DNA of 32,000 nucleotides from Candidatus Korarchaeum cryptofilum OPF8. Its GTDB lineage: Archaea > Korarchaeota > Korarchaeia > Korarchaeales > Korarchaeaceae. Every line of letters begins with the position of its first letter. Positions within the stretch are counted from its first letter, which is position 1. The notes beneath the pieces were generated by a model. The model had not been told where the DNA came from. It did no database searches and saw only the letters and a list, made by a program, of their open reading frames with translations. Below, piece after piece: positions 17,548 to 32,000 of this stretch. The stretch is from NCBI RefSeq assembly GCF_000019605.1, contig NC_010482.1, forward strand, positions 690,001-722,000, read 5' to 3'. The position numbers and the translations under genes are program-made.

Positions 17548-17894
17548 GTGGCAGCATAGAAATTGCCCACAGCTCAATGCACACGAGATGGAACGTATAG
17601 TAAATGTTAGTTATCCGACAGCGGCCGAATCCAGAGGAAGATGGAACTAGTTAAGCGGATTTCATCAGCTAAGCGATAAAGCTATCAGAAGCTTGGTAAA
17701 CTAGGAGTGTGAGAGCTCCCTGTAGAATGCTATCATTTTCCTCACAGCTTCATAGCAGTCCCCCTCCTTGTACAGGGAGAGGGCTTCATCCAGCAGGGCT
17801 TGAAGCTCAGCAGCCTTATCCTTGCTCAGCTTTCCGGCTGTGATACCCTCACCCTTATAATACAACCTCTCTGAGATTTTTAAAAATAAAGCCT

Positions 17895-17915
17895 TGTTAA
17901 ACTGATTGTTTAACA
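17895..17915. repeat. perfect 8-bp inverted repeat (5-nt loop) at the GC/AT compositional boundary
   Basis: 'TGTTAAAC tgatt GTTTAACA' sits immediately next to the A/T tract 'tttttaaaaataaa' (17876-17890). Confidence 0.75.
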
Positions 17916-18050
17916 GAAAGACCTTTCATGAGTGGTTAGCGGCCCAGAATCTGATCTTATAACAGCTGCGTAGCCCCAACACTAGGATATCCTCGAACTA
18001 ATATTTGAGCGAAATCCTTATAACTAACTAGCCGCTTTTATTACTTCTTG

Positions 18051-18431
18051 ATGATTATACTAACCCATGGAAAATATAAGGAAAATGCTGGATTTATCTT
18101 CTTTGGAAAAGATAAGGAGTTAAATTTGGTGAGGGAGGGAGACAGAAGGGAGGAGGTATGCACTCCTAATTTCCTAAGTACTCTTTTAGAATGTATTTCT
18201 TTAGATTATATTTCGACCTCTAAGTTAGAAAAAATAATTGAAATAAGTGGGGAGAAAATAAAAGAAAGATCAATAAAAATAGAAAATCGAGTAAAGAAGA
18301 TACATAAAAGAGTGAAAATAAACAATAATGGGAGGATCCAGGGCTATCAGATTGATATCGCCCCTGTATGGCATAAAGGATTATCCACTAACGAGAGGGC
18401 ATGCGGGAGGTGGAAATATGGAAATATTTAA
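18051..18431 (+). CDS. hypothetical small protein, possible first gene of the AT-rich operon
   Basis: A ~126-codon open frame in ~32% GC DNA, where stops are frequent. It overlaps the next start by 14 nt. It is Lys/Glu/Ile-rich, and no motif was recognised. Confidence 0.3.
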   Translation: MIILTHGKYKENAGFIFFGKDKELNLVREGDRREEVCTPNFLSTLLECISLDYISTSKLEKIIEISGEKIKERSIKIENRVKKIHKRVKINNNGRIQGYQIDIAPVWHKGLSTNERACGRWKYGNI

Positions 18432-20520
18432 AAGAATAATAGCACTATTTAGGAAAATTTCTCGCATCTTTCAAAAGAAGGAGTTATATATAGGGGATCT
18501 ATCCAGGGAGCAAAGAAGCGAACCTTCTACTGCCGTAGAGAACATAATAGATAAGGAAGAAGCTCGGGGAGAATTGGAAAAAGAGATTGAGGGTAAGTCT
18601 ATAAGAGAGCTAGAAGAGAGAGTAGAACAGAGTATTCCTGAAGGAAGGAGAAGGAAAAAGCCTCAAAAAAAGAGAGCTCCTACTGAACAGGATATAAAGA
18701 CAAGAAGGACTGTTTATAAAGAACAGAGGGTACACGCGATAGGAAAAGAGGTGAAACTAGGCAAAAAGAGATCTACAGGGAGAGCTAAGAGGCCAAAGTC
18801 ATTAGAGGCAGTTCCAAAGGAAAGAAGAGAGGAAAAATCGGCTCAATCCTCTATAAGAGTGAGAGCGCCATTTGTTGAAATTGATCTTGACAGGGCTAAG
18901 GTTTTTCTCGTGATCCCAAAACAAAGCTTAACGGTAGAAAATTCCTCTAAAAAACAATTGAGTTATAGGGTATCCTTAGATAACGAAGTAGAAAGACCGC
19001 TTCCAGTTGGAATTACCGGTAATGAAGAATATCCAGAAACAGAAGAAGAAAGGATTGAAATAGAAAAACCTATAAAAAATTTTAAGGTTGCCTATCCAGA
19101 AGAGCTTGAAGGTAGGAATTATACTTACGAACATAGGGATGATTCTATTTATACTTTCATCGCTGTTGGAGATGGTCTAGGCAGAATGCACTATCTATAC
19201 GAAGATGGGAACATCAATCCACTTCCTCAAAGAGAAATATGGGTCCTTCTTGAGGAGGATTTTGAGCCCGAGATCGAACCGATTTTAGAGGAGGATAGAT
19301 GGATCTGGGAAAAATATAGGCCATTATATATCGATTTGAGAGATAAAAGTGAATTAGTTATAATAAATAGAAAGTTAAATAAAAGAGAAGCTATACCTTG
19401 TAAATCTACTTTTTCCATTGAAGGCGAAGAGATTATTTATGATGATTTCAGCGATCAATCTCCTATTTTTACGGGTAACAGTATTAAAATAAAAGCTCCA
19501 ACAATAAATGAAGAAGGATGGGTCGTTTATGTTCAAAACAAACAAGATGGTTATAAGATTGTTTCCGATAATTGGTTAGGGAAGGATCCCCTTGAGCTGA
19601 GATTTGACCGTGATCTACCCTGTGAATGCGGGGAATTCCAGGTAGATATCTGTGGGCAAGATGGGAAATCTGTTAACACACTGTTCTTCAGGTATATTCC
19701 ATCTTTGCGATTAAATTATTCGAGGGAACTCATCATCCCAGATCCCAAGAAGGGCCATAAAACAGAGAGAGTTGAGATTTCACTTCCATATGCAGAATAT
19801 TTTGAAATAGAAACTGAAGAGCAAATAAAACCCACCCCGAAAGGATATGAGATCATTTTACCACCGAAAAGAGATGTCTTTAGGTTCTCCATCTTCAAGA
19901 AGAATAAGCCGGAAACTAAAGTAAGCTTCAGAGTAACGGTTCCAAGATTAAAATGGAAGACCTCAAGACATATAGATTGGAGGGATACTCCGCTACGTTT
20001 AGAGAGGGAAGAACTGCTCACTAGCGAAGAACTCTACCTCTATATCAATACGAATAGTTTTCCTAACTATAATATTTCGGCGATACTCGAGGCAAATAAC
20101 CAGAAACTGCAGGAATCAAAGTTTGTTAGAAAGAGAAATATTTACAGCATCTTATTAAACCAATTTTATGATACTATTAAGGAAAGCAAAGGTAGGATTG
20201 TGCTTAAGATTAAAATCCTTAAAAACGAAAGGATCATAGGTGAAAATATTCCCGTTCTATATCTCTCTGAAAAGATAACGCTTAGACCTATCCCGCGAGG
20301 ATCGAGAAAGAGTATGAGACCGATTGTAAGGTGCGGCATGGGCATGAGGGAAGGAAGGGGCTTTAGTAAAGAAGAAATAATCCAGGCTGGGATTAGAATA
20401 GAAGATGCTAAACGATTGAACATTCCGTATGATAAGCATAGGAAGTCAGCACATCCCAAAAATATCGAGATTTTAAGATCGTTAGTTGAAGGTGATAATT
20501 ATGCCGATAGATCCGATTAA
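18418..20520 (+). CDS. ~700-aa orphan protein: basic/acidic disordered N-terminus, beta-rich middle, C-terminal ribosomal-protein-L13e-like module
   Basis: ATG 18418 is preceded by 'GGAGGTGG' 5 nt upstream. The 2.1-kb frame is uninterrupted in AT-rich DNA. The first ~150 aa are K/R/E-rich. The C-terminus reads 'RPIVRCGMGMREGRGFSKEEIIQAGIRIEDAKRLNIPYDKHRKSAHPKNIEILRSL'. The stop lies 20 nt inside the downstream helicase gene. Confidence 0.8.
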   Translation: MEIFKRIIALFRKISRIFQKKELYIGDLSREQRSEPSTAVENIIDKEEARGELEKEIEGKSIRELEERVEQSIPEGRRRKKPQKKRAPTEQDIKTRRTVYKEQRVHAIGKEVKLGKKRSTGRAKRPKSLEAVPKERREEKSAQSSIRVRAPFVEIDLDRAKVFLVIPKQSLTVENSSKKQLSYRVSLDNEVERPLPVGITGNEEYPETEEERIEIEKPIKNFKVAYPEELEGRNYTYEHRDDSIYTFIAVGDGLGRMHYLYEDGNINPLPQREIWVLLEEDFEPEIEPILEEDRWIWEKYRPLYIDLRDKSELVIINRKLNKREAIPCKSTFSIEGEEIIYDDFSDQSPIFTGNSIKIKAPTINEEGWVVYVQNKQDGYKIVSDNWLGKDPLELRFDRDLPCECGEFQVDICGQDGKSVNTLFFRYIPSLRLNYSRELIIPDPKKGHKTERVEISLPYAEYFEIETEEQIKPTPKGYEIILPPKRDVFRFSIFKKNKPETKVSFRVTVPRLKWKTSRHIDWRDTPLRLEREELLTSEELYLYINTNSFPNYNISAILEANNQKLQESKFVRKRNIYSILLNQFYDTIKESKGRIVLKIKILKNERIIGENIPVLYLSEKITLRPIPRGSRKSMRPIVRCGMGMREGRGFSKEEIIQAGIRIEDAKRLNIPYDKHRKSAHPKNIEILRSLVEGDNYADRSD
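20314..20490 (+). other. L13e-like domain (C-terminal ~60 aa of the 18418..20520 product)
   Basis: It matches the conserved core of eukaryotic/archaeal L13e as I recall it: human RPL13 '..[62 protein letters not shown]'. The shared elements are RPIVRC, GRGFS-EE, AGI, I--D-(R/H)R and N---L. Confidence 0.7.
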
Positions 20521-23500
20521 GGTTACACAGAATATTCGCGAGAGCTATATCCGATATTTGACGAGTACTTTCCACCTTAGAGACGAACAATTTCGAAGTA
20601 AATTCCGGCAAGAAGTTGAGGCTTTTTCCTTTATAAAGGGCCCCATTTTAGAGGCAACACCACCTTTCGAAAGAGGATGTCATCTTAAGGATTTAATTAG
20701 AGAAGGGTTGCTCAGCGATAAACTAGAGAGTTTTATTTTTGATGCGATGGATTATTTGCGCAATAATCCACTATACTTACACCAGGAGAAAGCTATTAGA
20801 AAGATAATTAAAGGTAGAAATGTGCTCATTGCCTCCGGTACAAGTAGTGGGAAGACGGAGTGCTTCCTGATACCAATTTATAATCATCTTTTAAGAGAAT
20901 ATGAGGAAGGAAGGCTCACACCAGGAGTAAGGGCTCTTTTGCTCTATCCTATGAATGCATTAGCTAACGATCAGCTGAGAAAGCTGAGAAAAATAGCGAG
21001 AGTGATGGAAGAGAAAATTCCCGAAGTTAAAATAACCTTCGGTAGATATGTCGGCGACACTCCTGAAGCTAAGGGAGATGGATTAGAGAAGTTCAAATTG
21101 ATGAATCCCAAGGAGAAGCCCGTAGAGAGCGAACTTCTTTCGAGAGAAGAGATGAGAGAAAATCCACCTCATATACTAATAACGAATTACGCAATGCTCG
21201 AATATTTACTTTTGAGACCAAAAGACTCGCCTTTCTTTGATGGAGAATACGCGAGAAACTGGAAATTCTTAGTTCTCGATGAAGCCCATATCTATAGCGG
21301 GGCAACGGGAATTGAAATGGCTATGCTCATCCGTCGCTTGAAAGATAGAGTCTGTAAAAATATGGAAGGTGACTTGCAGTGCATCGCGGCAAGCGCAACT
21401 CTTGTTAGGGGGGAGGAGGATTTTGAAAAAGTAGCAGACTTTGCAACTAAGCTTTTTGGAGAAAGATTTGAATGGGATCCAGAGGATAGTGAAAGACAGG
21501 ACATAATTAAGGGAGAAAGAATCAAAATAGAGGGCTCGAAGGCTGAATTTAAGGCATCACTCAATCTATACTTAGAACTAGAAGATAGAATAATTCAAGA
21601 TACTTCCTCTCCTACTCTGGAACAACTGTACAAGACTTGTGAAGAAAATGGTATTCCTAAAAGTATTTTGGATAATTCGAGGGATATTTGCGACAATAAT
21701 CCAAAGAGATTCCTTTACGAAGTTCTTTCAAAAGATGAGATGGCAATAAAACTGAAGTCTCTGCTAGAAGGAGGAGCGAAGGGGATTGATGAATGCGCTA
21801 AATATCTTTTAGAAAAAGATGAGCCCTCAAAGGAAGAATATAGCCAGATAATTAGCCTTATTAATGTATTAGTGTGGGCACGCCCAGATGAGGATTCCTT
21901 ACCTCTTTTACCGGCTCGTTACCATCTATTTGTTCGCGCACCGGAGGGGGTCTTTATATCCTTTTACCCTGAACCGAGGATATTCCTAGAGAGGAGGGAG
22001 CTGACGGATGATGGGTATCCCGTCTTTGAACTCGCTTCTTGCCGACGCTGTGGGCAGGAATATTTAGTCGGAGAGGTCGTAGAGGGTAAATTAAAGCATT
22101 CTTTTGCTGAGGTAGATACTCAGAGGAAGAATAGGTATTTCATGTTATGGGGGGAAGATATTAAACTAAAGGAAGACGAAGATCAGGAAGTAGCAGTTCC
22201 TGAAGAAATTGCTAAAGAAGGAGATGTATGGAAGCTGTGCGTAAAGTGTGGGTCGATATGGAAAGATAAACCTACCTGTAATTGTGACCATGAGAGAGAT
22301 TCCGTAAGGACATTGATCGAAGTAACTCCCAAGGACACAGTTCTTAATAAATGCTACCTATGCGGATTACGCTCCATAGATATTGTTCGCGAATTCATTT
22401 TCCAGAGAGATGCTCCTGCAGCAGTATTAACTACAGCGTTGTACCAAAATCTTCCGAGGGATCACGCAAGGGAGAGAAAAATACTCATCTTCTCGGATAG
22501 TAGACAAGATGCCGCATTTTTTGCTCCTTATCTGGAGTTCACTTATAAAAGGATCTTATTCAGGCGTTTGATAGTTGAAGCCATAAAAGGAAATCGATTA
22601 GAAGATTACAGGCTTGAATCCTTATGTGAGGATGTTCTGCGGCTCGGTGAAAAAAGTAAAGTTTTTGATCCAGCGAAGGATGAGAAAGAAAGGAAAAAAG
22701 AGGTCTGGAAATGGATAATTCAAGAGTTCTGCGGAATCTGGGATAGGAGAAATTCTCTAGAAGGTGTTGGGCTGGTATCATTTATCCTGATATTTCCTGA
22801 AAACTGGAGGCCCATCAAAGAGCTACAAGAACCGCCCTGGAATCTTACAGAGGACGAAGCGAGAGCATTATATCAAACATTGCTCAACTCCATGCGCTTC
22901 AATATGGCTATTACTTTTCCTGATGGACTGAATTCCCAAGATGAGTTCTTTAGCCCAAGGAATAGAGAGTACAAATTCAGAGGGGAAGGCTCCGATACCG
23001 GAAGAGGGATATACTCCTTCATACCATCTCAAGGCAGGACTAATGCAAGACTCGAATATTTGGAAAAGTTATATAAGAAGATTACGGGAAAGGAAGATGA
23101 AAACAATGAATGTAGGGAGCTATTAGGAAAAATATGGGAGGATTTGAGAGATAACTGGGTTGATAGGGGTATACAGAGATTTAGCAACTCGAGAGATGGT
23201 GTCCTTTACAAGCTTGATTATAGATATTGGAGAATAATCCAGCCGAACACCTCTTGGTTCATTTGCGATCGCTGCGGAGTAATTGTACCCTCAAGCGTGC
23301 GGGGAGTCTGCCCGACATTCGGCTGTAATGGAAATCTCATTCCAATAGATAACCAAAAATTTGAAGATCTTGAAAGAAACCATTACCGCTATCTATATAC
23401 TCACTTGGAACCCATAGTAATGGCTCCCCATGAGCATACAGCACAGCTCACCACCGATCATGCCTCAAACATTCAGCAAAAGTTTATAAGAGGGGATATC

Positions 23501-25333
23501 AATATCTTGAGTTGCTCAACTACATTCGAGCTAGGAGTGGATATTGGAGAATTAGAAGCTATCTTTTTACGTAATGTCCCACCAGAACCCTCAAACTATA
23601 TTCAGCGCGCAGGAAGAGCAGGAAGAAGACTCGGTACCATAGGATTTATTCTGACTTTCGCCCAACTTCGTTCTCATGACCTTGCATACTTTAAAGAGCC
23701 AGAAAAAATGATTGAGGGAAGAATAAAGCCACCTATCATTGAACTCAAGAATGAGAAGATAATTTCCCGTCATCTCTACTCCATTGCAATTGCGGATTTC
23801 TTCAGAAAATTTAGCGATTATTTCGGGGATGCGGACTCGTTTTTCAGATTTGAAGAAGGTATTTCAGGCACAGAGAGAATAAAGGAGTATCTTCTCACAA
23901 AGCCCGAATCCATCCTGAAATCATTAAAAAGAGTCATACCTGAGGACTTGCAGAAAGTTTTTGGAGTTGATGATTGGAAATGGGTTGATGGTCTTGTGGG
24001 TAAAGAAGGTGTTCTTACAAAAGCAGACGAGAAAATAAGGGACGAATTTACCAGGCTTAAGGAATTCTATAGATTAAAGGAGGAAGAATGGAATAGTGCC
24101 CAAGATCAGCAAAAAAGAAACAAAATACATGCAGATATGAACTGGGCATACAAAAGAAAGGAGACTATTAAGAGAAAACAGCTCATAGATTTCTTAGCAT
24201 CTCATGCAGTTATTCCCAAGTATGGTTTTCCAGTGGATGTTGTTGAATTGGACATCCTATCACACCAGGACGCTGCTAAAAATATCCAGCTAGAAAGAGA
24301 CTTGAGCATAGCTATTTCAGAATTCGCGCCAGGGAGTCAGGTAGTTGCAAATGGGTATATTTGGGAGAGTGAAGGGTTGAAAGTCGTGAGAAATAGGACA
24401 TGGCCGATTTACTGGTATGCTATCTGCAGTGAATGCAATAAATTTTTCATAAAAAGTGGAACAATAGAAGAAAACCCACCCTCCTTCTCATGCGATGTTC
24501 ATGGACCCATCTCACGGGGGGATATACATAGATTTGTCACGCCAATATTTGGCTTTGTGACCTCTAAGGATTTTGAGCCAAAGAAACCGGGTGAATCGAG
24601 ACCAAAGCATGAGTTTACCACAAGACCATACTTCTTCAGTTATGAGAAACCAGAGGAAAGAATATTCACTATTGGCAGATTTAAGATTAAATGTAAGTAC
24701 TCTTCCGATGGAGAATTAGCCGTTATCTGTAAGGGGAAGAAGGGTGGATTTTGGATATGTTTTGATTGCGGTGCGGCTTTCCCGGAGAGAAAAAGAAAGC
24801 ATAAAACGCCTTACGGGATGGACTGCACATCACCTTTGAAAGGCCCGTTTCACCTTGGACATACTTTTAAGACTGACGTGCTTTCTATTTCATTTGAAGA
24901 GCCAAATATAAATGAAAGTTATATTAGAGAGATATTTAGATCAAAGTCTATTAAGATAAATAATAAGTTTGTAGAAAGCTTCTGGCTATCCCTCTTATAT
25001 GCAGTACTAGAGGGCGCAAGCCAGGCCCTCGGGATAAAAAGAGAGGATCTGAATGGATGCCTCCATTCATCTGAGGGCAGAATTATGCTAATATTGTTTG
25101 ATAATGTTCCTGGTGGAGCTGGGCATGTAAAACGAATAATGAGCGAGAGAAACTTGTATGAGGTTCTCAAGGGTGCCCTAGCCCGAGTCAAGAATTGCGC
25201 ATGTGGGCTTGAGACCAGTTGTTATGGATGCCTCCGAAGTTATGAGAATCAATTCTGTCATGACCTACTGAAGAGAGGCGTTGTCTGGGAGTTTCTTGAA
25301 AGAAATCTGGAGGGGGATCAGTTACGTAGATAG
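20501..25333 (+). CDS. ~1610-aa DEAH-box SF2 helicase with multiple zinc ribbons and C-terminal DUF1998 (MrfA-type Zn-binding) domain; DrmA+DrmB / DruE-like
   Basis: ATG 20501 follows a 'GGTGA' SD. Motif I is 'ASGTSSGKTE' (~20831), Ia 'YPMNALANDQ', II 'VLDEAH' (~21275), III 'ASATL', IV-like 'IFSDSRQDAAF' (~22490), 'HTAQL..STTFELGVDIGELEAIF' and VI 'QRAGRAGRR'. CxxC pairs lie at ~22039, 22237, 22354, 23266/23311, 24424 and 24760. The C-terminus 'LFDNVPGGAGH...CACGLETSCYGCLRSYENQFCHDLLKRG' is the DUF1998 signature. Confidence 0.9.
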   Translation: MPIDPIKVTQNIRESYIRYLTSTFHLRDEQFRSKFRQEVEAFSFIKGPILEATPPFERGCHLKDLIREGLLSDKLESFIFDAMDYLRNNPLYLHQEKAIRKIIKGRNVLIASGTSSGKTECFLIPIYNHLLREYEEGRLTPGVRALLLYPMNALANDQLRKLRKIARVMEEKIPEVKITFGRYVGDTPEAKGDGLEKFKLMNPKEKPVESELLSREEMRENPPHILITNYAMLEYLLLRPKDSPFFDGEYARNWKFLVLDEAHIYSGATGIEMAMLIRRLKDRVCKNMEGDLQCIAASATLVRGEEDFEKVADFATKLFGERFEWDPEDSERQDIIKGERIKIEGSKAEFKASLNLYLELEDRIIQDTSSPTLEQLYKTCEENGIPKSILDNSRDICDNNPKRFLYEVLSKDEMAIKLKSLLEGGAKGIDECAKYLLEKDEPSKEEYSQIISLINVLVWARPDEDSLPLLPARYHLFVRAPEGVFISFYPEPRIFLERRELTDDGYPVFELASCRRCGQEYLVGEVVEGKLKHSFAEVDTQRKNRYFMLWGEDIKLKEDEDQEVAVPEEIAKEGDVWKLCVKCGSIWKDKPTCNCDHERDSVRTLIEVTPKDTVLNKCYLCGLRSIDIVREFIFQRDAPAAVLTTALYQNLPRDHARERKILIFSDSRQDAAFFAPYLEFTYKRILFRRLIVEAIKGNRLEDYRLESLCEDVLRLGEKSKVFDPAKDEKERKKEVWKWIIQEFCGIWDRRNSLEGVGLVSFILIFPENWRPIKELQEPPWNLTEDEARALYQTLLNSMRFNMAITFPDGLNSQDEFFSPRNREYKFRGEGSDTGRGIYSFIPSQGRTNARLEYLEKLYKKITGKEDENNECRELLGKIWEDLRDNWVDRGIQRFSNSRDGVLYKLDYRYWRIIQPNTSWFICDRCGVIVPSSVRGVCPTFGCNGNLIPIDNQKFEDLERNHYRYLYTHLEPIVMAPHEHTAQLTTDHASNIQQKFIRGDINILSCSTTFELGVDIGELEAIFLRNVPPEPSNYIQRAGRAGRRLGTIGFILTFAQLRSHDLAYFKEPEKMIEGRIKPPIIELKNEKIISRHLYSIAIADFFRKFSDYFGDADSFFRFEEGISGTERIKEYLLTKPESILKSLKRVIPEDLQKVFGVDDWKWVDGLVGKEGVLTKADEKIRDEFTRLKEFYRLKEEEWNSAQDQQKRNKIHADMNWAYKRKETIKRKQLIDFLASHAVIPKYGFPVDVVELDILSHQDAAKNIQLERDLSIAISEFAPGSQVVANGYIWESEGLKVVRNRTWPIYWYAICSECNKFFIKSGTIEENPPSFSCDVHGPISRGDIHRFVTPIFGFVTSKDFEPKKPGESRPKHEFTTRPYFFSYEKPEERIFTIGRFKIKCKYSSDGELAVICKGKKGGFWICFDCGAAFPERKRKHKTPYGMDCTSPLKGPFHLGHTFKTDVLSISFEEPNINESYIREIFRSKSIKINNKFVESFWLSLLYAVLEGASQALGIKREDLNGCLHSSEGRIMLILFDNVPGGAGHVKRIMSERNLYEVLKGALARVKNCACGLETSCYGCLRSYENQFCHDLLKRGVVWEFLERNLEGDQLRR

Positions 25334-25492: not shown

Positions 25493-26740
25493 TCAAGTTG
25501 ATCCGTAAGAGAGGCTAGCGAGCCTCTTCAGTAAATCCGGAGACTTCGTGTGTATGGGCTTCACATCCTTGGGCCTCACTACGCTCATTATACGCGTCAG
25601 CTGATAGGGATAGTAGTGGCCCGATGCCCTCATCCTGTAGTGCTGCACCCCCATGGCGGAGAGCCAGTTAGCTATCACATCGTATTCCAACGCCTCCTCT
25701 ACCTCAGGCTCCGGCTCAGAGAGTACCGCCACGGGGCTCCTCATAGCAGGGCGGAAGCTCGGATCCCTCAGTAAATCTACTATCTCCCTGTGGGAGGTAA
25801 GTATGAAAGAGTTCCCTCCTATCTCCTCAAGGGAAACCTTCTCCCTCATCGTCGGATATCTCACGAAATCCTCAACAAGATTTATCTCAACGGGGGGCTC
25901 TGGTATCCTCTCCAGGAGCTTAGCTATTTGAGCCGATGCAACGTAGCAATCGAATCCGAGCTCCTTCGCTATCTCGAGAATGAGGTAAGCGTACTCGAAG
26001 TCGAGACCATGGAGTGTGAATAGCATGGGAGCTTGAGAGGATTTTTGGGAGATAGCGATCCTCCTTATCATATTTGCGACATCATCCGGTGAGATAGGTG
26101 TCCTATTCGACCCTACATTCGTCCCCTCTATTATGAGAGTGTCCACTCTCACATCCGGATTCTCCCCCAAGTAAGTGAGGAGATCCTCGCCTATTAGCTC
26201 GAGGAACCTCTCCTCCCCGAGGAAGCCGTCGACTCTGAAGTCCCCTGTGTAAAGAATCGTCCCCTCTCTGCCGAAGTACAGGAATGCGTATGCTGGATAG
26301 GCGCTGTGGGATACTGGAAGTGGAATCACACCGTTTTCATCCTCTTCTAAAGGTTTTATCTCCCTTATCTCCAGGAAATATCTCCCTGCAACTAGCTGGA
26401 GCCATGAGGAGGAGTTCTCCCATCTCTCCTTCATATCCTCGTATACCGAGAGGCTCGGCAGGTATACGCGAGTCTCCGAGGGTATGTTGTGCAGGAGCCC
26501 CAGATGATCGAGGTGCATGTGCGATATGTATATGCCGCTGGCGTCCATGTACCATTCCTGCTTCGGGATGACCCCGAGTCTCCTGAGCTCAGCTATCCCC
26601 TGAGGCGTTACCTGCATAGAGTAATACCTGCTCATTATATCGAATCTGATCCCCTGATCGAATACAAGAGTTTTATCTCCATCCCTTATCCTTACAAAAT
26701 TCCCACCTATGCTGTTCTCCCCGGACAGTATCTCTATCAA
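25493..26740 (-). CDS. metallo-beta-lactamase-fold nuclease, RNase J-like (MBL/beta-CASP)
   Basis: The 'HMHLDHLG' (HxHxDH) motif is present. The RNase J-like N-terminus is 'IEILSGENSIGGNFVRIRDGDKTLVFDQG'. Also present are 'TLIIEGTNVG' and 'RASGHYYP'. The preferred start is TTG 26740, which overlaps the SNF2 stop and has GGAGG 7 nt upstream. The ORF-track ATG at 26836 adds a non-homologous 32-aa extension lying inside the SNF2 gene. Confidence 0.75.
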   Translation of the reverse strand: MIEILSGENSIGGNFVRIRDGDKTLVFDQGIRFDIMSRYYSMQVTPQGIAELRRLGVIPKQEWYMDASGIYISHMHLDHLGLLHNIPSETRVYLPSLSVYEDMKERWENSSSWLQLVAGRYFLEIREIKPLEEDENGVIPLPVSHSAYPAYAFLYFGREGTILYTGDFRVDGFLGEERFLELIGEDLLTYLGENPDVRVDTLIIEGTNVGSNRTPISPDDVANMIRRIAISQKSSQAPMLFTLHGLDFEYAYLILEIAKELGFDCYVASAQIAKLLERIPEPPVEINLVEDFVRYPTMREKVSLEEIGGNSFILTSHREIVDLLRDPSFRPAMRSPVAVLSEPEPEVEEALEYDVIANWLSAMGVQHYRMRASGHYYPYQLTRIMSVVRPKDVKPIHTKSPDLLKRLASLSYGST

Positions 26741-29673
26741 GGCTTCCCCTCCTTCGGCCTCAGGATGTACCTCCTCTCCACCCTCTCGAATGCCTCCCAG
26801 TTCATGGTGCTGACCGGATCCCTGAACCTGATCCATTCGGGATCGGTCCCTATATTGTAAACTATGTAGAGCCAGTACCTTTCCCTCTCCCTCTCAGCGA
26901 GCTCTGCTTCGTAAGAAGTCAGCTCCCCGTATACTTCAGGCCCCAGATGGCCCTTCACCTCTATTATCCTAACTTCCTTCGTGGATGGATCGACGCTCCT
27001 TATATCGTAGTGCTCCTCCTCCGGGACTACCTCGGGGATCCTCCCCTCATCCCTCTCCACCTTCATGACGATCTCAAGGGCCTTCTTCTCTACCTCCTTT
27101 TTGACTTCCTCCGGGATATCTAAGCTTCCCTTAGGGGGCTCGATGAACTGTATGGATCCCAGATCGTTGGAAGTCCCTATATCGAGGTCCTCAGCTTTCA
27201 TCCAGTTATCCGGACCCCTGAGTCCCTCCTCCTGCAACTTCCTGGAGTAGTTGATGATCGGTGAGAGGAGTTCCCTACAAGATTTCTGGAATTCATTTAT
27301 CACTATGGCCCTCAATTCCACGGAGATATCCGAGTTAGGTATCTCGGCTATTCCAACTAAATTCGAGATCGCTGATGAGATTAAGTCAATGAGTTCGGAT
27401 CCTCTTATGACCTTCTTTTTCTTTAGATCTATCCCGATGGGCTCCTTGTAGAGCAAACCCCAGCTCCTCCTATCCCTTATCTCCACTAGTTTTATGAGCA
27501 CCCTCCCATTTGGCCCGTAGGCCACTAGATTCACCGGAGATGAACTCTTACACTCCCCGAGAAGCATGCCATAGATTGTCCTTAAGCTTGTTACCGCTAC
27601 GGGCATCTCCGATCCCCTGATAACCTTTAGCTCATCCCCTTCCGAGAGAACCCTCAACCCGAGGAAGCCGGATGCTGACTTGAGGAGCTTCTTCATCGAA
27701 TCCATCAAGTCATGATGACTCTCGAATCCGATCTGGGCTATCGTATTTATTATCGCTTCCCTAGTTTTTTGAGCGTACAGCACCCCCTTGGACTTCAGTT
27801 CCCTCTCTATCTCCTGCTTGGCAGCTATTATGGACTCTATTAGGTCGCTCAGGCCCTTCTCATCTTTCCTCAGATAGGTCTCTATTAATTTAGCTTCAGT
27901 AACCTTGAAGAACCTTTTCTTCCCCTTCTCACTCTTCGTCACGACGTAAGGAGGCAGCTTCGTGAGATCCTCCGTTTCCGTATAGAGGATCACTTCCTGC
28001 CCGGTTATAGGCCTCGCGCCCAAATCCGCTCTCTTCAGGTTGAGGAGCTTCTCGTAGATGGATCTAAGCGCAGTGCTATCGGCTTTATTCGCCATGAAGA
28101 GGGTGTATATCTCAACCTCCCTCCTCTGCCCGAGCCTCCACACCCTGCCTATCCTCTGCTCCAGTTTTATCAGGCTCCAGGGGACCTCGTAATTTATCAG
28201 GATATGAGCTACCTGCAGGTTCAGGCCCTCAGCCGCGACATCCGTAGCTATGAGAACTCTAGCCCTAGGATCCCTCTCAAAAGCTCTTCTTATTTCCATG
28301 AATTTCTTCTCATCAGCCGTTTCATCCGAACTGAGTCTGAGGATCGAGCCTTCAGGCCACCCCTCATTCAGGAGCTTTTTCATTATGTAGTCGAGCGTGT
28401 CCTTATACTCGGTGAAGACTATGACCTTCGAATCCTCCTTCACCTCATCCAGCAGGGAAATTAGAGCTTTTAGTTTACTGTCTCCCTCCCTCATTATATC
28501 CCTCGCCATCTCAACGAGCTCCCTCATCTCCTCCCTATCCCTCTCGGACATGAGGGAGGATGTGGCATCCAGGAACTCCTCCATGATCTCCTCGGGATCT
28601 CTTCCCGGATACTCCTGATCCTCATATCCGGTTCCCAAGAGCGTCTCCACGCTGTGCATCAGTTCCTCCAAATTCTCGTGGGCTGTCCTCCTCAACAGCA
28701 GTCTCTCGAGAGTCGTCACAGCGGCATAGGGGCTGGAGGATGCCCTCTTGAATATGAGAACTAATAGGAGGGGGAGTGCCTTCTTGCTGAGCTCCTCCTT
28801 CTCATAGGCGAGATCTCTGAGTTTTGACTTCAGGAAATTGAGAAGTCTATTTATGAACTCCTCTTCATCCTTCCTCACCTTTATAACTGTCGCGTAAAAT
28901 CTGGCCATTGGGAATATCTCTTTTCCCTCGTATATCTTGTTTATCTCCTCCTTCGTCCTCCTGAAGATTATAGCTCCATGCGTCAGCTCATAGAACTGCT
29001 TCCTATCCAACGATCTCCAATCCTCCAGGTAGGGATCAAGGAGCCGAAGCCTCGATATGTAATCTGCGGGATCCCCTCTGTGAGGTGTCGCTGAGAGGAA
29101 TATCACATTCCTTCTGGGCTTTCTCTCTATAAGCTCCCTTCCTACCTCTTTGAATCTCTTCGTCTTCATCCCAAGCTTATGGGCTTCATCTACAATTATT
29201 ATATCCCATGGGACATCCAGAACTTCTTTTATCCTTTTCTCCCTTTTTATGAAGTCCATTGATGAGAGATAGTATCCATCAGGGAACCCCTGCTTTTTTA
29301 GATACTCTATGTTATCCCTCTCTATCTGATTAACTTTACCTATGCCCATCCTCTCGAGCTCCTTCCTCCACTGCGGTATGAGGACCCTGGGGACTATTAT
29401 CAACGCCTTGGATACTCTACCCACTCCTTCCATATATCTGGAGATCGCTAGGGCCGTTATCGTCTTTCCAAGCCCTATCTCATCCCCTATGAGGACTCTG
29501 ACGGGGTTCCTGAGAGCGAGTCTAGCGAGGACTTCGCACTGATGGAGGTAGTGCTGAGGGGGGTCCTCCGCGGAGGTCCGGAGATACGGGTATATCAGGG
29601 GGTGATAGCCCAGCTCATTCAAGAATCCTGAGATGAAGCCGATTACCCCATCCTTGAGTTTCATTACTATCAC
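26737..29673 (-). CDS. SNF2-family helicase with C-terminal DUF3883-like / PD-(D/E)xK-like domain
   Basis: Motif I is 'LIGDEIGLGKTI', II 'IIVDEAHKLG' and III 'FLSATP'. V is 'LIATDVAAEGLNLQ' and VI 'PWSLIKLEQRIGRVWRLGQ'. The C-terminus reads 'HYDIRSVDPSTKEVRIIEVKGH....YWLYIVYNI' (D...EVK, ~26790-27010). The track start is GTG 29673, and ATG at 29664 (MKLKDG) is equally plausible. Confidence 0.9.
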   Translation of the reverse strand: MIVMKLKDGVIGFISGFLNELGYHPLIYPYLRTSAEDPPQHYLHQCEVLARLALRNPVRVLIGDEIGLGKTITALAISRYMEGVGRVSKALIIVPRVLIPQWRKELERMGIGKVNQIERDNIEYLKKQGFPDGYYLSSMDFIKREKRIKEVLDVPWDIIIVDEAHKLGMKTKRFKEVGRELIERKPRRNVIFLSATPHRGDPADYISRLRLLDPYLEDWRSLDRKQFYELTHGAIIFRRTKEEINKIYEGKEIFPMARFYATVIKVRKDEEEFINRLLNFLKSKLRDLAYEKEELSKKALPLLLVLIFKRASSSPYAAVTTLERLLLRRTAHENLEELMHSVETLLGTGYEDQEYPGRDPEEIMEEFLDATSSLMSERDREEMRELVEMARDIMREGDSKLKALISLLDEVKEDSKVIVFTEYKDTLDYIMKKLLNEGWPEGSILRLSSDETADEKKFMEIRRAFERDPRARVLIATDVAAEGLNLQVAHILINYEVPWSLIKLEQRIGRVWRLGQRREVEIYTLFMANKADSTALRSIYEKLLNLKRADLGARPITGQEVILYTETEDLTKLPPYVVTKSEKGKKRFFKVTEAKLIETYLRKDEKGLSDLIESIIAAKQEIERELKSKGVLYAQKTREAIINTIAQIGFESHHDLMDSMKKLLKSASGFLGLRVLSEGDELKVIRGSEMPVAVTSLRTIYGMLLGECKSSSPVNLVAYGPNGRVLIKLVEIRDRRSWGLLYKEPIGIDLKKKKVIRGSELIDLISSAISNLVGIAEIPNSDISVELRAIVINEFQKSCRELLSPIINYSRKLQEEGLRGPDNWMKAEDLDIGTSNDLGSIQFIEPPKGSLDIPEEVKKEVEKKALEIVMKVERDEGRIPEVVPEEEHYDIRSVDPSTKEVRIIEVKGHLGPEVYGELTSYEAELAERERERYWLYIVYNIGTDPEWIRFRDPVSTMNWEAFERVERRYILRPKEGKP
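26738..26752 (-). promoter_or_regulatory. translational-coupling junction (SD + overlapping stop/start)
   Basis: The reverse strand reads 'GGAGGggaagccTTGA'. The SNF2 TGA (26739..26737) overlaps the nuclease TTG (26740..26738) by 2 nt, and GGAGG sits at 26752..26748. Confidence 0.5.
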
Positions 29674-29683
29674 GAATTTGAGG

Positions 29684-29698
29684 AAAAATAACTTAAAA
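29684..29698 (-). promoter_or_regulatory. candidate TATA box for the SNF2 gene (short or no leader)
   Basis: The reverse strand reads 'TTTTAAGTTATTTTT', centred ~27 nt upstream of ATG 29664, in the 118-bp gap after the upstream gene. Confidence 0.3.
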
Positions 29699-29791
29699 GT
29701 TTAGCTGTCCATGGGAAGTGTTGCTATCCTCATTACCAGCGATGAGCTCTCCTCTGGTAGTTAAAGGGAATCGCACATTTTCTAGATGTTT

Positions 29792-32000
29792 TCAGCCTTT
29801 ATGACCCTTCCTCCTCACTAGGAGTTTGAAGATAGCTCTTCCATTCAGTTGAGATAGCACCGCTATTTTCTGGTCATCCAACACCACATGATTCTCGAGC
29901 TCTATGCTTCCATTTAAATGCGTCCTCAATCCGAGCTGGCTCGCTTGCCTTGATATTTCATCTAACTTCTGGACTAGGAACCTCGCTATATCTATGCTCA
30001 CCCCCTCCATTGAGAAGCGTATATTCCCCCCGAACTCAGCATCGATATTCACTTTAGCCTTCATGCCCAGCTTGCTCACATTTTCTATCGCTATTTTCAG
30101 CGAAATTAGATCGGAACTACTTATTGATAGGAGCTTCTCTCCAGAGATGCTGCTATCTATCTTATCTACGTCTCTCTCCTCCTCAGGGCTCAAGATGACT
30201 ATGGAGACGGATTCCTCCTTGAGCAGCCCGTCCGAGCTCACTGCCCTTATCTTCAGGGGAAACCTCCCCACCCTCCTGGGCGTTACCTCCCATGAGACCT
30301 TCATCGGAGGCCTGCCTTTCCCCTGACTGAGCTCCCCTTCCTCTACCTGGAGCTTTATCTCCTCCGAATAATCTTCTACGGGTTCTATGGATATCTCGAA
30401 TACTGCCTTCTCTCCCTGGTTCAATTCCACATGCTTCGGTTTCACATCGAGAACGAAGCCTCTCTTCAGCTCCTCCTCCCTCTTCTCTATCACCCCGGCC
30501 CTCAAGACCTCTTCCCATCCTTCCTGCTTCACCAAGTCCTCGAGAGGTATTCTCTCCCCTCCAATCTCTACTTCGTACCAGATCCTCTTCGTTACTCCGT
30601 TCTTCCGCACACCGCTTTTGGAGAGGAGCTCCTCCTTCATCTGCTCCGCAGCCCTCTTCCAGGGGAGTATCACTGCTGTATCCCTCAATCCCTTCGGCCT
30701 CTCAGCGCCTGAGGATCCGATTCTCTTCCAGTAGAGTCCCCCCTCTATCTTAATCCCTATATCCAGTTTATCCAGGCCCTCGAGGAGGGCTTCCTCAACC
30801 GCTTTTTGCGTAGTGAAGGGAGCCGCTGTATTCGTGTAGAATACATCCATGATTTCCTTGAACTCGAACTGCCTGTCTCCATTCACTAAATCCCATCCGA
30901 GATTGTCCTTAAGAAAATCGGAGATATCCTTGAATTCCAGTTTTGTCCTGAGCTTCGGTCCAGTTCTCGGGTCTTTGAGCGCCGCTTCCACCTGCGATAT
31001 GAGGTAGGAGGAAGGGCTCGCTTCCACGATCTTTATATCGTTCCCCTCCTTCCCCTTGTATGGGTAAGCGACCTTCGTTAGGAGGGAGAGTATCTGCTGC
31101 ATCAAGTATCCTTTGTTTTCATTAATGTAACTCTCCAACTTATTACTCTGGATCTTTATTATGTCCTTATCCGTGTAGTACTCGCTCAGGTTTTCCTTTA
31201 TTTCTTCAGCTGCTTCTATCTTCGCTACATATCTGAGCTCATCCTCTAAGTTCGATTTCGATGGGAATACTACTGCTATCGTATTTGCATATGTTCTCTT
31301 TCCTCCTCCGGGTTCTCTCAGTATTATATTCCTCAGCTCCTCCTCACTAACATCCGGTTTTACCATTACGACTAACCTCAACGATTTCTCGTCCCTCAGT
31401 TCTCTCCCTATGTCATCTCCATATCCCAGTGTAATCACGTTATTACTGTCAAATACCTCGCCTGATGGCTTCTCTCCCTTCTTGCGGGTTCCGGATGTGT
31501 CTCCTTTAACATGACTTTTTACATAATTGACCAGCTTCCTGTGGAGGTCGAGGATCGCGCCTCTCAGCATCTCATCAGCTCTCCTCTCTACGTACTCCAA
31601 GACCGATGGATAGGGCGTGAACCAGAACCTGTTCTCCTCCCCGGTGAAGTGGGGGAGTTTGACCAGCATCTCCTCTACCGTGGCCTCTATATCTGGTGGC
31701 TGAAGATCGCTTGATGAAAAGCTCTCGGGATCGTAGGTCATCAAAGCTATGTCCTTCAGATCTGGGAATACTTTTAGAGGCTCTTTGAATGTTTCATAGG
31801 TGTAGGTCTTCAATAATACGACTGTAGCTATCTTGAGGGCGAGCGCTGGCTTTGAGCAGTTCGCGATAGAGCCGAGGCTTCCATCCTCGGATACTATGTC
31901 CCTGCTCGCGACATCCCTGAAATTCTTGTAGCTCTCTGTGAGGACCAGGTTCCTTATATCCTTATCCCTCAGGTCTATGTGCCACGGCATTATGAACTCC
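29792..32000 (-). CDS. large protein (>=732 aa; frame still open at window edge), tentatively the non-ATPase part of a DUF499/BrxC-like protein plus an Ig-like beta-sandwich region
   Basis: The 2.2-kb frame is uninterrupted, and the three codons upstream of ATG 31990 (EFI) contain no stop. 'RFWFTPYPSVLEYVERRA' and 'GGGKRTYANTIAVVFPSK...LRYVAKIEAAEEI' resemble conserved DUF499 segments as I remember them. No Walker A is present in the visible part. Residues ~520-620 ('FVLDVKPKHVELNQGEKAVFEISIEP...FPLKIRAVS') look like a beta-sandwich. Confidence 0.5.
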   Translation of the reverse strand, partial: EFIMPWHIDLRDKDIRNLVLTESYKNFRDVASRDIVSEDGSLGSIANCSKPALALKIATVVLLKTYTYETFKEPLKVFPDLKDIALMTYDPESFSSSDLQPPDIEATVEEMLVKLPHFTGEENRFWFTPYPSVLEYVERRADEMLRGAILDLHRKLVNYVKSHVKGDTSGTRKKGEKPSGEVFDSNNVITLGYGDDIGRELRDEKSLRLVVMVKPDVSEEELRNIILREPGGGKRTYANTIAVVFPSKSNLEDELRYVAKIEAAEEIKENLSEYYTDKDIIKIQSNKLESYINENKGYLMQQILSLLTKVAYPYKGKEGNDIKIVEASPSSYLISQVEAALKDPRTGPKLRTKLEFKDISDFLKDNLGWDLVNGDRQFEFKEIMDVFYTNTAAPFTTQKAVEEALLEGLDKLDIGIKIEGGLYWKRIGSSGAERPKGLRDTAVILPWKRAAEQMKEELLSKSGVRKNGVTKRIWYEVEIGGERIPLEDLVKQEGWEEVLRAGVIEKREEELKRGFVLDVKPKHVELNQGEKAVFEISIEPVEDYSEEIKLQVEEGELSQGKGRPPMKVSWEVTPRRVGRFPLKIRAVSSDGLLKEESVSIVILSPEEERDVDKIDSSISGEKLLSISSSDLISLKIAIENVSKLGMKAKVNIDAEFGGNIRFSMEGVSIDIARFLVQKLDEISRQASQLGLRTHLNGSIELENHVVLDDQKIAVLSQLNGRAIFKLLVRRKGHKG

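Follow-up and report, generated by a model that had tools for sequence, protein, structure and literature searches.

A mobile two-gene cassette of a DruE-type helicase and a new partner family with interchangeable C-terminal modules in archaea and bacteria

The partner-druE locus of Candidatus Korarchaeum cryptofilum

We analyzed a 32,000-nt stretch of the genome of Candidatus Korarchaeum cryptofilum OPF8 (NC_010482.1, positions 690,001 to 722,000 of the forward strand; hereafter the window), which carries a two-gene unit composed of a gene for a 700-aa protein (hereafter the partner) and a gene for a 1610-aa DruE-type helicase. The unit is probably an antiviral cassette, self-contained and horizontally mobile, of the Druantia type III kind, in the compact style of type III-B. 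Systems of this kind are known, and the novelty lies in the partner family, which is found in both archaea and bacteria. According to the open reading frame (ORF) listing and direct reading of the sequence, the partner gene starts with ATG at 18418 and ends with TAA at 20518-20520 (18418-20520), and druE extends from ATG at 20501 to a stop codon ending at 25333 (20501-25333). The two genes are co-directional on the + strand, as are all of their domains described below, and share an overlap of 20 nt. Upstream of either start lies a purine-rich Shine-Dalgarno-like element (GGAGGTG 5 nt 5' of ATG 18418, and GGTGA before ATG 20501). A longer form of the partner ORF begins at 18328; the conserved start is ATG 18418, from which the N-termini of homologs align. 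Independent gene calls on three metagenome contigs with an identical locus gave the same starts and the same lengths of 700 aa and 1610 aa. The overlapping arrangement with a Shine-Dalgarno element at each gene, as given in a preliminary description of this DNA, is borne out. The segment had also been called AT-rich, in agreement with a GC content of 0.31-0.43 across ~17.9-25.45 kb versus 0.47-0.56 in both flanks.

The druE product, a YprA/MrfA-family superfamily 2 (SF2) helicase, was matched by the DruE models of PADLOC with E-values spanning 4.9e-188 to 5e-112. The best match was DruE1 (4.9e-188, 626 bits), followed by DruE3 (7.4e-164), DruE2 (3e-137), and DruE4 (5.9e-122), whereas the PADLOC models of helicase families other than DruE (DpdJ, BrxH, DrmA, and Cas3) matched far more weakly, DrmA at only 1e-14. 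The best PDB relatives were 9tu7 (2108-aa chain, 4e-74) and 9wae (1970-aa chain), followed by MrfA/YprA (6znp, 1e-20); the first two were deposited only as helicases, and we take them to be DruE. The RecA1 domain (aa 94-304, 20780-21412; Pfam PF00270 DEAD, 3.2e-25) contains motifs I, Ia, and II, the last a DEAH box (SGTSSGKTE at aa 112, YPMNALANDQ at aa 149, and VLDEAH at aa 258), and the RecA2 core (aa 979-1042, 23435-23626; PF00271 Helicase_C, 8.9e-12) contains motif VI (QRAGRAGRR at aa 1035), all of them intact. Near the C-terminus lies the zinc-binding MZB/DUF1998 domain (aa 1500-1578, 24998-25234; PF09369, 3.3e-12), with the signature FDNVPGGAGH at aa 1533 and CACGLETSCYGCLRSYENQFCHDLL at aa 1566 and a Cys cluster at aa 1566-1586. 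Every SF2 and DUF1998 motif quoted in the preliminary description was thus located in this ORF.

RecA1 and RecA2 are separated by an insertion of ~670 aa (21413-23434), which holds the CxxC pairs at aa 514, 580, 618, 922, and 937, out of eight CxxC-type pairs in the whole protein; in homologs, the Pfam domain YjiV_N is present at this insertion. Bell et al. 2025 (PMC12458937) describe a BrxA-like, zinc-module beta-barrel, and MarR-like insertion as a derived trait common to the ARMADA/Druantia lineage, and by its position in the domain scheme of that study the insertion observed here may correspond to it. Pfam detected no PLD, Vsr, or other nuclease domain in the 1610 aa of the protein, which terminates 32 aa past the MZB domain, and for these reasons it is regarded as a compact, nuclease-less form. 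Judged from its sequence, the second gene encodes a bona fide DruE with ATPase motifs and MZB domain intact. The DruE orthologs of the same clade are 1543-1600 aa in length and have an identical Pfam set.

The preliminary description had considered the fusion of helicase and DUF1998 a departure from Druantia. This view has to be abandoned, as a helicase and DUF1998 in one protein are normal for DruE and only DISARM separates them (Bell et al. 2025, PMC12458937). DISARM shares the helicase superfamily and the OB-CON-DUF1998 canopy, which is also found in MrfA/YprA, but it encodes helicase (DrmA) and DUF1998 (DrmB) in two genes and has in addition a methylase and usually a PLD nuclease (DrmC). 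An assignment of the present locus to DISARM was rejected, given the single ORF for helicase and MZB, the DrmA score, and a cassette with neither a methylase nor a PLD gene.

For the partner, an AlphaFold2 model was built from a 72-sequence alignment, with a mean pLDDT (predicted local distance difference test) score of 75. In the model, the N-terminal part (aa 1-150, 18418-18867) consists of an amphipathic helix (aa 1-23) and a disordered linker reaching to ~aa 150, which is rich in Lys, Arg, and Glu (K+R fraction 0.28-0.30; pLDDT <50 for aa 19-145) and keeps the short conserved basic motifs K81-P82 and L114-G115. The central part (aa 151-620, 18868-20277), the conserved core of the family, is predicted with a pLDDT of ~90 to be all-beta and to form about five tandem Ig-like beta-sandwich domains, and the C-terminal domain (aa 630-691, 20305-20490) is small and helical. 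When the model was compared with PDB and viral libraries by Foldseek, only multi-Ig arrays were retrieved (such as CSF-1R, titin, alpha-2-macroglobulin, SbsC, and phage Big domains); the PDB set searched held no DruH structure, and this result is therefore silent on fold kinship with DruH.

The C-terminal domain had been described as L13e-like, and all searches agree with this. Pfam PF01294 gave 27.4 bits with the full-length protein and 33.5 bits with the tail alone (cut-off 24.9), and the NCBIfam model of archaeal L13e gave E=4e-14 (51.9 versus an equivalog cut-off of 96). The partner also matched eL13 chains in the PDB sequence search, and a PDB search with the family profile returned eL13 chains only. 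Over 63 aa the tail is 41% identical to a 78-aa stand-alone eL13-like protein. For an AlphaFold model of the eL13 domain only, the best 50 Foldseek matches in the PDB were all ribosome or pre-ribosome entries with chains of the size of eL13 (110-215 aa), and several of their entry codes recur among the eL13 chains found by the PDB sequence searches. Taken together, the sequence matches and the predicted fold indicate that aa 630-691 constitute a genuine archaeal-type eL13 core, with the whole conserved core covered. Beyond this tail, or a uS17 tail in its place, PADLOC, Pfam, and NCBIfam gave nothing for the partner and for the partners from five other loci, and no recognizable nuclease domain was found in either protein of the pair.

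In NCBI and JGI, the annotation "ribosomal protein L13e" has been given to several family members. The label is a domain-level misnomer, and the architecture explains why this misannotation recurs: the last ~60 residues of the partner are an eL13 core by sequence and fold, but here they form the tail of a 700-aa Ig-array protein that is co-transcribed with a helicase and is also found in bacteria. We likewise rejected the partner as a stand-alone ribosomal eL13 (~80 aa in archaea), considering that the domain makes up the last ~9% of a 700-aa protein in an operon with DruE, that its NCBIfam score stays under the equivalog cut-off, and that the family has bacterial members. To our knowledge, bacteria have no eL13.

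Partner family, pairing with DruE, and mobility

The partner had been described as an orphan, which proved to be incorrect. A word-indexed search of 5.8 billion proteins returned at least 139 partner clusters (35-99% identity) from archaea and bacteria, and when 1.84 billion representatives were searched exhaustively with a profile, the matches numbered 89, 121, and 387 at E-value limits of 1e-30, 1e-10, and 1e-3, respectively; eL13 proteins and other eL13-domain proteins make up the weakest group. Counts of the family refer to ~140 clusters at 90% identity and 89 at 50%. The distribution is sporadic. Archaeal hosts include Korarchaeia, Asgard archaea, Aenigmatarchaeota, Methanofastidiosia, Thermoplasmatales, and Archaeoglobus, and bacterial hosts include Aquificaceae, WOR-3, Verrucomicrobiia, Bacteroidetes (Bacteroidales), Clostridia, Spirochaetes, and others.

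At all of the 22 loci examined (~20 non-redundant), the partner gene is directly followed by a DruE gene on the same strand. This arrangement was also seen for all four remote relatives checked, each of which has a DruE-type helicase gene next to it (P0231, 1207 aa; P0209, 747 aa; P0250, 1268 aa; P0240, 427 aa). Co-occurrence of the two proteins, a check that the preliminary description had proposed, is therefore well founded. The DruE beside P0240 is split into three ORFs (locus L036), and this copy looks like a decaying one. P0222, P0240, P0250, and P0209 (412-1268 aa; loci L033, L034, and L036) are distant beta-rich proteins with an eL13-type end, and the N-terminus of P0250 is a long coiled coil.

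The two proteins differ in their rate of change. DruE identity is 58-93% (mean 71%) across 91 pairs of loci and partner identity 35-69% (mean 45%), and in none of these pairs is the partner more conserved than DruE; the partner evolves much faster than the helicase. The same asymmetry has been reported for DruH versus DruE (PMC13192584). In a rough neighbor-joining tree of DruE, the archaea group together, WOR-3 and Aquificaceae adjoin them, and the other bacteria are basal; bacterial members are numerous. In view of this placement of archaea, thermophilic bacteria, and other bacteria, the clade has crossed the archaea-bacteria boundary, and the module is not archaea-specific, contrary to the earlier view of it as archaeal. 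Transfer of a Druantia-type system between two domains of life is thereby documented.

The nearest DruE outside the clade that was found on plasmids is that of Clostridium butyricum; it is compact, 31% identical, and accompanied by an unrelated 1069-aa partner, to which the partner family shows no similarity by hhalign or BLASTP. On the C. butyricum megaplasmid (L007, 2783-10668) and in Ralstonia (L030, 5580-12895), a compact DruE follows partners of 1069 aa and 470 aa, respectively, which match neither the DruH models nor the new partner family. Since these two partners fit neither group, the diversity of DruE partners exceeds what current catalogs hold.

The C-terminal position of the partner is interchangeable. 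In a census of 121 members, 60 have an eL13-type module, 22 have a Cys/His zinc finger with weak C2H2/BED matches in Pfam, two have a complete uS17 OB domain (Pfam S17, 2.6e-30, model positions 1-68 of 68), and the other 37 have at least two further helical types with no Pfam identity. The uS17 domain stands in place of the eL13 tail in P0117 and P0118 (loci L024 and L025). In our reading it resembles the bacterial type, and a ribosomal-protein gene would then have been captured a second time, independently. Ribosomal-protein domains of two kinds, eL13 and uS17, have been recruited into what would be an immune protein.

These modules raise the alternative of an RNA-sensing or ribosome-acting system, with structured RNA, RNA-DNA hybrids, or the translation apparatus as the targets of eL13 and uS17. 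Ribosomal proteins of two unrelated kinds, both of which bind ribosomal RNA, have been independently recruited to one position, the eL13 module is 41% identical to the stand-alone eL13-like protein across the core and matches the eL13 fold, and the domain accompanies DruE partners into bacteria, which lack eL13. We nevertheless consider this alternative improbable, because the zinc-finger and other helical modules in the same position point to nucleic-acid binding of a generic sort, the OB fold of uS17 is of a class that in many cases binds single-stranded DNA (ssDNA), the native ribosomal sites of eL13 and uS17 are occupied (bacteria having no eL13 site), YprA/MrfA helicases are DNA translocases, and the DruE and DruH proteins studied so far act on DNA, with no degradation of single-stranded RNA by DruH detected in one study. 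A cassette of the Druantia type III kind is the reading retained here.

Some relatives carry nuclease-like domains. P0056 has an HSDR_N-like (PD-(D/E)xK) domain at its N-terminus, and a nuclease-like gene lies directly upstream of the pair in L026 (PDDEXK_1) and L006 (HSDR_N and DUF5655). As a PD-(D/E)xK-like domain is fused to the partner or encoded upstream in only some relatives, nuclease activity may be an optional add-on. Long N-terminal extensions of 600-1000 aa were observed in P0161, P0169, P0172, P0173, and P0180 (~1370-1418 aa) and in P0188 (1779 aa); for P0161 and P0188, neither a PDB sequence search with these extensions nor PADLOC yielded a match. Our literature search found no published link of L13e with Druantia, DUF1998, or defense islands, and no description of the partner family, its interchangeable ribosomal-protein-derived heads, or the tight archaeal-bacterial DruE clade.

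The extent of the cassette could be determined by comparison with a second Korarchaeon. The region 17889-25311 (+ strand), comprising a 5' leader, the partner gene, and druE, aligns as a single 7.4-kb block with 82.7% nucleotide identity to Candidatus Methanodesulfokora washburnensis (Korarchaeia; L010:4390-11774), and the alignment boundaries coincide with the AT-rich segment. The flanks of the L010 block are unrelated to those of the window, the genomic context being a different one. The leader (17889-18417, + strand, ~530 nt) is conserved with L010 at 73-82% nucleotide identity and is probably a non-coding promoter or untranslated region; it was not found upstream in other loci and has no Rfam match. 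A gene-caller ORF in this region (18051-18431, 126 aa) was considered as a third gene and rejected: its product is only 40% identical to the L010 copy versus 73-82% at the nucleotide level, and it is absent elsewhere. Across 20 loci there is no third conserved gene, and the cassette encloses two genes. At its 5' edge, within the stretch of the leader best conserved with L010, a perfect 7-nt inverted repeat (GTTAAAC-TGATT-GTTTAAC, 17896-17914, direct reading) represents a candidate for an operator or a recombination site. The window contains neither a tRNA gene nor an Rfam family, no flanking repeats of note, direct or inverted, were detected, and scans of it for promoters and terminators stayed at background level.

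Other loci also show the unit in mobile or defense-related settings. In an Aquificaceae metagenome-assembled genome (L001/L017, 9205-18955), the cassette lies between two type I hsdM fragments and looks as if it had been inserted into the methylase gene; the upstream fragment has HsdM_N and N6_Mtase (267 aa), and the downstream one has N6_Mtase (306 aa) and is followed by a 221-aa unannotated gene and hsdS. At L005 (7977-18771), two IS110-family transposases flank the cassette, which suggests carriage as a composite transposon, and genes for PLD, DUF87, and ABC-ATPase proteins are located just upstream. Elsewhere, the cassette adjoins a type III restriction-modification system, in another locus SMC-like ATPases and a HepT/MNT toxin-antitoxin pair, and in one locus it sits amid otherwise metabolic genes. 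The unit thus behaves as a mobile cassette that has been transferred horizontally. It sits in a defense island: the window also carries an Hma system, a helicase resembling DpdF, and the gene of a TumE toxin, and other loci have restriction-modification, IS110, and toxin-antitoxin genes, so that this check, too, turned out as the preliminary description had expected.

These contexts also bear on the possibility of a housekeeping DNA-repair module, that is, an MrfA/YprA-like helicase and a factor accessory to it. In favor of it, the repair helicase MrfA (PDB 6znp) is a homolog of DruE, and the pair contains no nuclease or toxin domain. Such a module is very improbable all the same, because the DruE models fit far better than MrfA-type ones (TIGR03817, 122 bits versus a cut-off of 874), the spread is patchy with 58-93% DruE identity across two domains of life, and the GC content is atypical, the genomic contexts differ, and defense and mobile-element genes are the neighbors. 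MrfA/YprA itself is ~750 aa compared with 1610 aa here, has no large zinc-module insertions, and works with the exonuclease MrfB; with no MrfB-like gene present, the identification of the helicase as MrfA/YprA was rejected.

Comparison with Druantia and proposed mode of action

The Druantia type III architecture proposed in the preliminary description, a large partner followed by DruE in a two-gene operon, stands. A compact, nuclease-less DruE with a single partner has been named Druantia III-B (PMC12458937; Himpich et al. 2026), and in the present locus we found two genes (one partner and DruE) and a DruE without PLD domains. In Mycobacterium smegmatis, MSMEG_1253/1254 encode DruH and a 1667-aa DruE, both without nuclease domains, whose genes overlap by 17 bp; this pair protects against phage and has been called type III (PMC13316683), and in our reading it groups with III-B. 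Like III-B systems, the unit described here is a two-gene operon in which the upstream gene, that of the partner, overlaps druE; its DruE falls within ~1550-1670 aa and ends at MZB/DUF1998 without a nuclease, its partner is Ig-rich and evolves faster than DruE, and it is associated with defense islands and mobile elements. It differs from them in that the partner has 700 aa compared with ~1100 aa for DruH and no homology to it detectable by hidden Markov model (HMM) or profile-profile comparison, that the N-terminus of the partner is disordered and basic and not a helical domain, that its end is an interchangeable ribosomal-protein-type or zinc-finger module, and that the DruE clade is tight (58-93%) and ~31% identical to the nearest compact plasmid DruE.

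With Druantia III-A, represented by DruH-DruE of Escherichia coli and Pseudomonas aeruginosa, the unit shares the DruE helicase core, the zinc-binding modules, the MZB domain, and the two-gene operon, and the template of a 3'-to-5' helicase that loads at ssDNA with a sensor or ssDNA-binding partner is likely shared as well. However, the III-A DruE is ~2100 aa long with two C-terminal PLD-like nuclease domains, none of which exists here, and the III-A DruH is STY4851/ECs_5259 (YjiT), whose helical N- and C-terminal domains with the reported exonuclease and ssDNA/ATP sites are absent from the partner. Type I (DruABCDE) is the system whose DruE1 profile scores highest (626 bits), but its inactivated Vsr-like C-terminal domain is missing here, the alignment stopping at position 1679 of 1776. 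PADLOC found no match to the Dru proteins DruA-D (type I) or DruM/F/G (type II) in the partner, the leader ORF, or the downstream genes; the ABC-transporter genes at 15.9-17.5 kb were covered by a Pfam scan only.

The relation of the partner to DruH was examined with E. coli DruH from a Zorya-Druantia-ARMADA island as a positive control, which matches ten PADLOC DruH3 models with E-values from 0 to 2e-20. The partner matches none of the PADLOC DruH models at E<=0.1, and neither do four other family members or partners and seven remote relatives. A comparison of the 72-sequence family profile with E. coli DruH by hhalign gave a probability of 0.1%, and BLASTP gave E>2. NCBIfam, presumably the source of the RefSeq name "STY4851/ECs_5259 family" for E. 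coli DruH, has no match to the partner except for the eL13 tail. The remote relatives from the exhaustive profile search form no bridge to DruH. The preliminary description had seen no feature of the partner that could be related to DruH, and these comparisons uphold it: the partner holds the DruH position, and by sequence it is not a detectable DruH homolog. A blind spot of PADLOC-style annotation is predicted from this, in which a DruE model matches but no partner model does.

The possibility that the locus is ordinary Druantia III and its partner a true, extremely diverged, and shortened DruH is unlikely in our judgment, although several features speak for it: gene order, overlapping genes (by 17 bp in the mycobacterial pair), and the two-gene composition are the same, tandem Ig-like domains occur in both DruH and the partner, both evolve faster than DruE, and the name "DruH" is used in the literature for the III-B partner too. 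These are outweighed by the failure of the partner to match any of at least ten DruH3 models that all recognize E. coli DruH, by the hhalign, BLASTP, and NCBIfam results, by remote relatives that do not link the two, and by the replacement of the functional helical N- and C-terminal domains with a disordered basic linker and an eL13 domain; Ig-like arrays are also too common to prove shared ancestry. Accordingly, of the earlier suggestion of a new variant or family and not a cataloged system, the new partner family can be retained, and the kind of system is already known (DruE, III-B). Similarly, the claim of a new archaeal defense module is kept in part: it is a mobile two-gene unit in a defense island, with a defense role that would follow by analogy with Druantia III, and it is neither archaea-specific nor a new class.

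Druantia is among the most widespread antiphage systems, and the roles of its partner proteins are disputed; in 2026 preprints, DruH is variously portrayed as binding ssDNA, as an exonuclease, as a scaffold, or as a sensor of proteins. Ig-like domains and ssDNA binding have been reported for DruH (10.64898/2026.05.12.722862), and DruE is a 3'-to-5' helicase (10.64898/2026.05.12.722862; 10.64898/2026.05.13.724758). The ssDNA site of DruH has been reported to lie at the interface of Ig5 and the C-terminal domain and to compete with ATP, and one study mapped a 3'-5' exonuclease site to the N-terminal domain. By analogy with the Druantia III systems of E. coli, Pseudomonas, and Mycobacterium, the partner would be the sensing and targeting subunit of the present cassette. 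Its Ig-like array may recognize an infection cue or serve as a scaffold, and the basic linker and the C-terminal nucleic-acid-binding module would anchor it where the nucleic acid of the invader is exposed and single-stranded. DruE, as an ATP-driven 3'-to-5' translocase loading at single-strand/duplex junctions, would then unwind or strip replication intermediates, and viral replication would be blocked. Destruction of the target may be unneeded, may be left to host nucleases, or may be carried out by an active site of non-canonical type. Function without a nuclease is conceivable, because the nuclease-free pair of M. smegmatis protects and because the PLD domains of a III-A system were reported to be dispensable (Himpich et al. 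2026).

Several points weigh against interpreting the unit as a Druantia type III-like antiviral cassette. The defense role of the clade is deduced from homology and genomic context, and the transfer of the DruH role to the partner draws on gene position, fold class, and evolutionary rate, this limit arising from the lack of detected sequence homology to DruH. The partner does not have the N- and C-terminal alpha-helical domains that carry the DruH exonuclease and part of its ssDNA site, and no nuclease or other effector domain is detectable in the pair that would account for the killing step. In ribosomes, eL13 and uS17 bind RNA, and DNA binding by the corresponding modules is an assumption. 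By HMM score the helicase is nearest to the DruE1 model, the III-B style having been assigned from form and gene count. The neighbor-joining tree and the two-sequence comparison of the leader are rough.

A more far-reaching proposal, which we put forward as speculative and rather unlikely to be correct, is that the partner represents a new class of immune sensor that has repeatedly captured ribosomal-protein heads (half of the members having archaeal eL13 and a few bacterial uS17) and acts in a nuclease-free manner, being triggered by or tethered to RNA or RNA-DNA hybrids. It depends on the captured heads retaining their native preference for structured RNA. If true, such an RNA-triggered or RNA-tethered cassette would form a branch of helicase-based immunity with a mechanism of its own, exchanged between archaea and bacteria. 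Under the favored Druantia type III-like interpretation, the clade offers a natural minimal version of the system, in which an Ig-like array with an exchangeable nucleic-acid-binding head is combined with a nuclease-less, conserved helicase (58-93%). Owing to this minimal, nuclease-less composition and its highly conserved helicase, the clade is suited for testing which partner features are essential and whether a nuclease is needed.

Neighboring genes

An Hma system (25493-32000, - strand) is convergent to druE, begins 160 nt downstream of it, and continues beyond the end of the window (see L027:11549-21185). It comprises an SNF2 helicase with NOV_C/DUF3883 (26737-29673; HmaA, 4.9e-55), a DUF499 ATPase (from 29792; its full-length copy matches HmaC at 4.8e-45), and, outside the window, a DUF1156-type methylase (HmaB, 1e-37). 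At the 3' end of the Hma operon there is an extra gene for a product of 415-447 aa (25493-26836), which has weak metallo-beta-lactamase-fold matches and lies outside the cataloged Hma set. The proximity of this operon, on the opposite strand, and the frequent co-localization or synergy of defense systems, for example Druantia III with Zorya II and ARMADA II, would favor a larger joint system formed by the pair and the adjacent Hma-like genes (metallo-beta-lactamase-fold protein, SNF2 helicase, DUF499 ATPase, and DUF1156 methylase). Such a joint system is scarcely credible, considering that the Hma genes fall outside the boundary of the cassette at 25311, that the other Korarchaeon copy has different neighbors, that Hma genes are beside the pair at none of the 20 other loci, and that the orientation is convergent. 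We therefore keep to a self-contained two-gene cassette.

On the other side of the cassette, a gene at 4114-8331 (- strand) encodes a 1405-aa protein with an RNase_T-like exonuclease (aa 189-270) and a DpdF/PsyrT-like SF2 helicase (PADLOC DpdF, 3e-64), which is another candidate defense gene of the same island. A TumE-family toxin gene was identified at 13398-13769 (+ strand; Pfam, 8e-20), and the ORF before it (12890-13207, + strand) could be its putative antitoxin. Finally, a small gene of the window (11505-11867; ORF 11520-11885, 121 aa, no Pfam match) has 86% nucleotide identity to a gene near the cassette in L010 (12273-12635), where its position relative to the cassette is different; this sharing hints that the host of the window is a related Korarchaeon or that the small gene itself is mobile.

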